A DNA stretch of 24,518 nt from a virus (lineage: Duplodnaviria > Heunggongvirae > Uroviricota > Caudoviricetes): IMG/VR virus record IMGVR_UViG_2778261643_000010. One strand, given 5' to 3'. Shown here in pieces: positions 4,488 to 4,633 of this stretch. Each line of letters begins with the position of its first letter. Position 1 is the first letter of the stretch. The notes below the pieces were generated by a model. That model ran no database searches, was not told where the DNA came from, and saw nothing but the letters and a program-made list of their open reading frames with translations. Position numbers and translations under genes: made by a program.

Positions 4488-4559
4488 AGTCAGCCTGACA
4501 GAAATAGATGATGGTGATTCTACCGCTAGTCATTTGTTGATTATTTAACTCAATAAAAG

Positions 4560-4576
4560 AAAATTATTAGTGCAAT
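4560..4576 (-). promoter_or_regulatory. C1-repressor operator-like 17-mer (ATTGCACTAATAATTTT on the minus strand)
   Basis: It matches the P1 C1 operator consensus ATTGCTCTAATAAATTT, as I remember it, at 15 of 17 positions. It sits in the divergent intergenic region between the 4487 and 4634 gene starts. Confidence 0.5.
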
Positions 4577-4633
4577 TTTAGTTGTGAAATGTATCATTCT
4601 GCCCTTAAGTAGGTTCTTCATGAGGAAACAAAA

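Follow-up and report, generated by a model that had tools for sequence, protein, structure and literature searches.

In a P1-like plasmid prophage, a repressor site lies in a short spacer between two divergent operons, which raises the question of which operon it serves. The window, the whole 24,518-nucleotide stretch of DNA that was analysed, is a segment of such a prophage (genus Punavirus). At positions 4488-4633 it contains a 146-bp spacer between two start codons, the ATG of gene 26 at 4487 on the minus strand and the TTG of pmgL at 4634 on the plus strand. The initial annotation had placed an operator-like 17-mer in this spacer, between two divergently transcribed operons, and gene 26 and pmgL do flank the spacer in opposite directions.

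Over common regions the window is 96-98% identical to P1, P7, RCS47, SJ46 and others, and positions 59-24462 show 100% identity to the E. coli plasmid NZ_CP122822.1. The region is found at 95% identity or higher in about 490 PLSDB plasmids. The gene order is that of P1. The minus strand carries 5-6-24-7-25-26, the first gene of this leftward operon encoding a baseplate protein similar to T4 gp53 (similarity stated in PMC9024508). After the spacer, the plus strand carries pmgL, pmgM, pmgN-pmgQ (including ppp), pmgR, pmgS and pap; then, beyond a cassette substitution, come hot, humD, phd/doc, pdcB, lpa, pacA and pacB. The TTG start of pmgL is preceded by GAGGAA, and there is an alternative ATG at 4667. 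The description of the rightward genes as a nuclease/phosphatase block holds: Ppp has a clear metallophosphatase match, and PmgM matches Pfam VRR_NUC at 21.2 bits, under the 23.8 cut-off. The repressor gene c1 lies outside the window, past its right end, where the window stops inside pacB at an IS10 end. NZ_CP122822.1 encodes a C1 that is identical to P1 C1.100 at 282 of 283 positions.

Table 1. Coordinates of the features discussed, in window positions
Feature	Position	Strand	Basis or details
C1 repressor operator, orthologous to O26 (former Op82) of P1 and Op(26) of P7	4560..4576	minus	ATTGCACTAATAATTTT; consensus 15/17, PWM, orthology
Gene 26, baseplate protein, first of the leftward 26-25-7-24-6-5 operon	4110..4487	minus	ORF; P1, P7, RefSeq annotation
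pmgL, first gene of the rightward operon	4634..4879	plus	ORF; P1 annotation
pmgM, VRR-NUC-like nuclease gene	4882..5460	plus	ORF; RefSeq 'VRR-NUC domain-containing protein'
P1pmgL, predicted sigma-70 promoter	4570..4597	plus	-35 GTGCAA 4570-4575, 16-nt spacer, -10 TATCAT 4592-4597
P2pmgL, predicted sigma-70 promoter	4537..4564	plus	-35 TTGATT 4537-4542, -10 GAAAAT 4559-4564
LP26, Lpa-dependent late promoter	4517..4535	minus	box AAATGACTA 4527-4535, 4-nt spacer gcgg, -10 TAGAAT 4517-4522
LPpmgL, annotated late promoter (doubtful)	4527..4545	plus	quasi-palindromic box TAGTCATTT common with LP26; -10 ATTATT 4540-4545
P26, annotated predicted leftward sigma-70 promoter, inside pmgL	4848-4876	minus	GTCAAA/CATATT in window
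Oppp ortholog (former Op83), weaker operator between pmgM and pmgN	5467..5483	minus	TGTGCACTAATTAATTT; P1 annotation
Olpa (former Op94), upstream of lpa (21563-22015)	21476..21492	plus	consensus match; identical to P1 Olpa
hsdR, type I R-M cassette	10591-13767	minus
hsdS, type I R-M cassette	13829-15085	minus
hsdM, type I R-M cassette	15082-16638	minus

The minus strand at 4560-4576 reads ATTGCACTAATAATTTT, the complement of the plus-strand letters aaaattattagtgcaat. The P1 genome has 22 C1 operators, and the quoted consensus of the 17-bp asymmetric operator is ATTGCTCTAATAAATTT (PMC8546580). A recount gave the same 15 of 17 matches that had been claimed, with mismatches at operator positions 6 and 14, and the site is the top operator-like site of the window. 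It was scored with a weight matrix (PWM) built from the monovalent C1 sites that are annotated in P1, 20 in all, O26 itself being omitted (leave-one-out, 19 operators). The copy at 4560-4576 scores 24.8 bits, the best score in the window, and would be 7th among the 20 annotated P1 operators. This score was reached in none of 200 first-order Markov-simulated windows, the simulated maximum being 19.0. At up to three mismatches, five consensus matches are observed in the window against 0.09 expected from dinucleotide-preserving shuffles.

The homologous P1 region, with which comparison had been proposed, carries the exact 17-mer at the same position and on the same strand (AF234172 78528-78544, minus), annotated in GenBank as 'monovalent C1-controlled operator O26; corresponds to former Op82', with a note that cites Op82 in X87824. 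The identical 17-mer in P7 is Op(26), AF503408 80909-80925. In a 191-bp alignment of the window, P1 and P7 the operator is 100% identical, base for base, in all three; the P1 and P7 sites also share its strand, its distance to gene 26 and pmgL, and the same late-promoter box. Because the identical 17-mer is annotated in both homologous regions, the interpretation as a C1-type operator is supported, and the site is almost certainly the O26 operator. As such it is an already known feature, listed in the reference records of both phages. The operator itself does not differ from that of P1 and P7; what differs is the host element, a P1-like plasmid variant with an hsd cassette and IS10 ends. A full-text literature search on Op82, other Op names and pmgL returned only unrelated papers. 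The earlier suggestion that a repressor controls one or both operons thus gains support from the match to an annotated operator.

A chance resemblance that binds nothing would have to be considered in an AT-rich spacer such as this one. The expectation of 0.09 matches per window at three mismatches or fewer, the PWM score unmatched in 200 simulated windows, the exact orthology to annotated P1 and P7 operators and a core that is invariant over 30 haplotypes with variable flanks all count against it. By these sequence comparisons a chance match is effectively excluded.

Two further operators of the window bear on the argument (Table 1). The Oppp ortholog matches the consensus at 13 of 17 positions and scores 14.5 bits by PWM, the sixth-best site of the window. 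Olpa precedes the gene of the late activator Lpa. Other strong consensus matches are the orthologs of OpmgRa and OpmgRb (Op86a and Op86b) at 8184-8200 on the plus strand and 8233-8249 on the minus strand, at their expected positions.

The anatomy of the spacer was obtained by carrying the P1 annotation over to window coordinates. Promoter prediction, also proposed in the initial annotation, gave a divided result. A standard scan of 4300-4800 for sigma-70 promoters and terminators was empty, while a relaxed scan recovered the annotated P1pmgL and P2pmgL, each with 8 of 12 consensus matches. The operator overlaps both of these predicted promoters. The -35 element of P1pmgL lies wholly inside it, and the -10 element of P2pmgL overlaps it by 5 nt. 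P1pmgL, whose promoter activity we infer, is most likely the direct target of repression. P2pmgL is a weaker candidate, its -35 element being polymorphic at three of six positions among relatives.

The late promoters of the spacer were compared with a pattern, AAGTGACTT-N4-TAnnAT, derived from 11 annotated P1 late promoters. LP26 fits this pattern, has a box identical to that of LPsit, and is predicted to drive gene 26 and the genes downstream. Counted from the estimated start of LP26, the operator occupies about -50 to -66 and does not reach into the core of that late promoter. LPpmgL is a poor match to the pattern, its -10 element being AATATT in P1 and ATTATT here, and its standing as a late promoter is doubtful. 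An Rfam search of the whole window found no RNA families and so gives no support to an RNA element in the spacer.

The published annotation points the other way. The operator might control the leftward gene 26 operon, either because C1 blocks the path of transcripts from P26 or because it disturbs upstream contacts of LP26. The name O26 assigns the site to that operon, as does the P7 note, according to which it 'regulates expression of 26, 25, and other genes in 26 operon'. The asymmetric site also lies on the same strand as gene 26 and reads in its direction, and the P1 record lists a leftward sigma-70 promoter, P26, on the upstream side of the operator. The naming of the site, its description in P7 and its orientation also count against an action on pmgL, as do the weak predicted pmgL promoters (8/12) and the empty standard scan. 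P26 is itself weak, however; about 7 of 12 matches were counted by eye and it missed the 8/12 filter of the relaxed scan. The distance of the operator from the LP26 start also speaks against a direct effect on that promoter.

Expression timing separates the two operons. The values are the 'log Fold Change' at 10 min of P1vir infection in the wild-type host, taken from Table S1 of PMC8201110. They are 7.0 for pmgL, 8.0 for pmgM, 5.4 for pmgN, 7.4 for pmgO, 7.0 for pmgP, 6.9 for ppp and 7.0 for pmgQ, with a mean of 6.96 (n = 7 genes); the 24 genes behind other C1 operators have a mean of 8.01. Genes 26, 25, 7, 24, 6 and 5 range from 3.35 to 4.42 (mean 3.86), and the 25 genes of Lpa-only late operons have a mean of 4.24. 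At 10 min the pmgL group is near the C1-operator class, whereas the gene 26 group is indistinguishable from the late class. The ranges of the 26 and pmgL operons do not overlap (Mann-Whitney p = 0.001, with the caveat that genes of one operon are not independent). Both operons are high by 30 min in the P1vir data. From 10 to 30 min, genes 26 to 5 of P1, rather than of this element, gain about 7 log units, as the other late operons do.

P1vir bypasses C1, and the RNA-seq data show early rightward transcription rather than C1 dependence. The early expression of pmgL-pmgQ therefore supports a promoter at pmgL, although PpmgN/Oppp may contribute to the early signal of pmgN-pmgQ. In the P1vir RNA-seq, early expression of the 26 operon does not exceed that of the Lpa-only class, which counts against control of gene 26 by this operator. 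A preprint on P1vir in a delta-hfq host added nothing on pmgL or gene 26.

A rearranged relative, Cronobacter phage JK004 (MZ188976), provides a separate comparison. It is an unannotated P1-like phage, all of whose genes carry the label 'hypothetical'. A C1 homolog, 76% identical to P1 C1, is encoded next to pacB, and the genome has about 20 C1-type operator sites of the ATTGCTCTAATAA type. The JK004 gene 26 homolog has 86% amino-acid identity, and pmgL is no longer adjacent to it. An evident late promoter, AAGTGACTC-agca-TACAAT, is still present upstream of this gene, and no operator was found in the spacer there. About 32 kb separate gene 26 from the homologs of pmgL-pmgS, at the head of which stand two extra small genes. 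Operator-like sites precede this block, at 70227-70243 and at 70485-70501, both oriented with transcription. In this single rearranged relative, gene 26 retains its late promoter without the operator, which speaks against a direct C1 input to gene 26. The diverged Salmonella plasmid pCVMN1543, considered as another comparison, has a different same-strand gene upstream of gene 26 without an operator match and is uninformative.

The spacer was also compared among close relatives. Against P1 it has five substitutions (4498, 4541, 4580-4581 and 4621), and the 191-bp flank differs at six positions, none of them in the operator. The differences in the three-sequence alignment of the window, P1 and P7 are too few to show constraint on the operator, and a scan of GTDB genomes with an alignment of gp26 found only three loci, all 100% identical. 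A sample of 76 ungapped IMG/VR contigs with identical gp26, representing 30 spacer haplotypes, was used instead; restricted to gp26-identical relatives, it serves the study of polymorphism rather than deep comparison. In these 76 contigs the 146-bp spacer has 28 variable positions. None of them falls in operator positions 1-11 (4566-4576), in the Lpa box (4527-4535) or in the -10 element of P1pmgL, which sits in a 16-bp invariant run at 4588-4603. The operator variants are two singletons, at positions 12 and 13, which are also variable among P1 operators. The spacers of P1pmgL and LP26 are polymorphic, and the -10 element of LPpmgL varies at four of six positions, as the -35 element of P2pmgL does at three of six. 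When the operator, the box, the LP26 -10 and the P1pmgL -10 are pooled and compared with the rest, the difference is modest and the test post hoc (Fisher p = 0.03). The A at 4498 of the window occurs in only 1 of the 76 related contigs. The T at 4541 is found in 27 of them; it changes two annotated elements, the LPpmgL -10 and the P2pmgL -35.

An action of O26 on pmgL rather than gene 26 is fairly likely, because promoter geometry, RNA-seq timing, the JK004 rearrangement and the pattern of polymorphism point in the same direction. Direct control of the gene 26 operon by this operator is, on the same evidence, unlikely.

The mechanism that best explains these data is as follows. C1 binds its operator as a monomer. 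In the plasmid-prophage state C1 would bind the asymmetric O26 site, and the co-repressor Lxc strengthens C1 binding (PMC8546580; also the P1 annotation of lxc). Bound over the -35 element of P1pmgL and the -10 element of P2pmgL, C1 would stand in the way of RNA polymerase, and the pmgL-pmgM(-ppp-pmgQ) operon would stay silent. LP26 would be silent in the lysogen for another reason, its activator Lpa being itself behind the C1 operator Olpa. When C1 is inactivated, the pmgL-pmgM-...-ppp operon would be turned on early and the gene 26 operon later, once Lpa accumulates. The gene 26 operon would thus be under indirect C1 control, because LP26 needs Lpa and Olpa precedes lpa. That O26, bound by C1 in the prophage, silences the early pmgL operon while gene 26 is controlled by C1 only indirectly is the probable explanation of the site. 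Its direct basis is identity in sequence and position with the annotated operator, a statistically strong match, conservation, and consistency with the published timing of expression; that C1 binds this copy, and which promoter it blocks, we infer.

C1 at O26 could have an added architectural role. It might loop with Oppp, 907 bp downstream, or with other operators, or it might act as a roadblock to LPpmgL at about +15 to +31; either route may tighten the silencing of the divergent region. For the c1 region, loops that C1 forms from one operator to another have been described. O26 and Oppp are on the same strand, both have A at position 6 (GCACTAAT), and they bracket pmgL-pmgM; the operator is also downstream of the LPpmgL -10. 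Looping at this locus is hypothetical, however, and LPpmgL is weak with a poorly conserved -10. Late promoters in any case need Lpa, already repressed via Olpa, and a roadblock there would be redundant. Such a role is quite improbable.

A stronger form of the pmgL assignment holds that O26 is misnamed. It would be the operator of the early pmgL-pmgM-to-ppp operon, cooperating with Oppp 907 bp away, for example by looping, and gene 26 would have no direct C1 input. This version in full is a rather unlikely one. If true, the spacer would be a compact junction from which repressor-controlled early and activator-controlled late transcription diverge within about 60 bp.

The preferred reading, with O26 acting on the pmgL operon, resembles the arrangement at other P1 operators. 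At Obana/Op72 (ban), OpmgT/Op88 and OpmgRa/Op86a of P1, the 17-bp motif also lies over or next to the -35 element of an early operon, and the early expression of the genes downstream is comparable to that of the pmgL operon. O26 differs from these three in several respects. Obana, OpmgT and OpmgRa read with their operon, whereas O26 reads opposite to pmgL. O26 has A, not T, at position 6, and its spacer also holds a divergent Lpa-dependent late promoter. The sites with A at position 6 form a sub-class that consists of O26, Oppp and Omat, plus the bivalent second halves Obanb and Oc1a.

In phage lambda, OR lies between PRM and PR, a repressor site in a short divergent spacer that silences the lytic genes of the prophage. 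O26 is alike in that a repressor site is located in a short spacer between divergent units. The two systems differ in that P1 has single asymmetric sites scattered over the genome (22, PMC8546580) while lambda has clustered symmetric dimer sites. In addition, a late structural operon that depends on an activator forms the leftward unit here, whereas in lambda that unit is the repressor gene.

About 20 C1 operators of P1 are catalogued, and O26 is one of them; P1-like plasmid prophages, a very common family, carry it unchanged. The sole increment here concerns which operon it serves, and the evidence favours the early pmgL/nuclease/phosphatase operon over gene 26. This assignment affects the regulatory maps of P1-like plasmids and otherwise little beyond correct annotation.

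The ends of the window have a separate feature. Positions 1-58 and 24456-24518 correspond to the terminal ~60 nt of IS10/ISVsa5, present as two inverted copies that are 100% identical to R100 (NC_002134) 36131-36194, a stretch 108 nt before a gene annotated as 'IS4-like element ISVsa5 family transposase'. The IS10 junctions are inside gene 5 (baseplate) and pacB (terminase) and bracket a 24.4-kb P1-like segment; NZ_CP122822.1 is uninterrupted at both junction points. The bracketed segment may be a disrupted prophage, a unit resembling a composite transposon, or a contig with repeats at its ends.

A type I restriction-modification cassette in the 10326-16638 region of the window replaces pmgT-pmgU-pmgV of P1. 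The Op88/OpmgT homolog is kept at 10326-10342 on the plus strand (ATTGCTCTAATAAGTCT) and, together with predicted promoters, faces hsdR from its 3' side. It is conceivable that C1 controls a transcript antisense to hsdR.

A minor point concerns the P1 record itself. Omat (former Op2b) is annotated at AF234172 2628-2645 on the minus strand with a length of 18 nt. Its strand looks flipped, because the consensus-like CATGCACTAATAAATAT reads on the plus strand.
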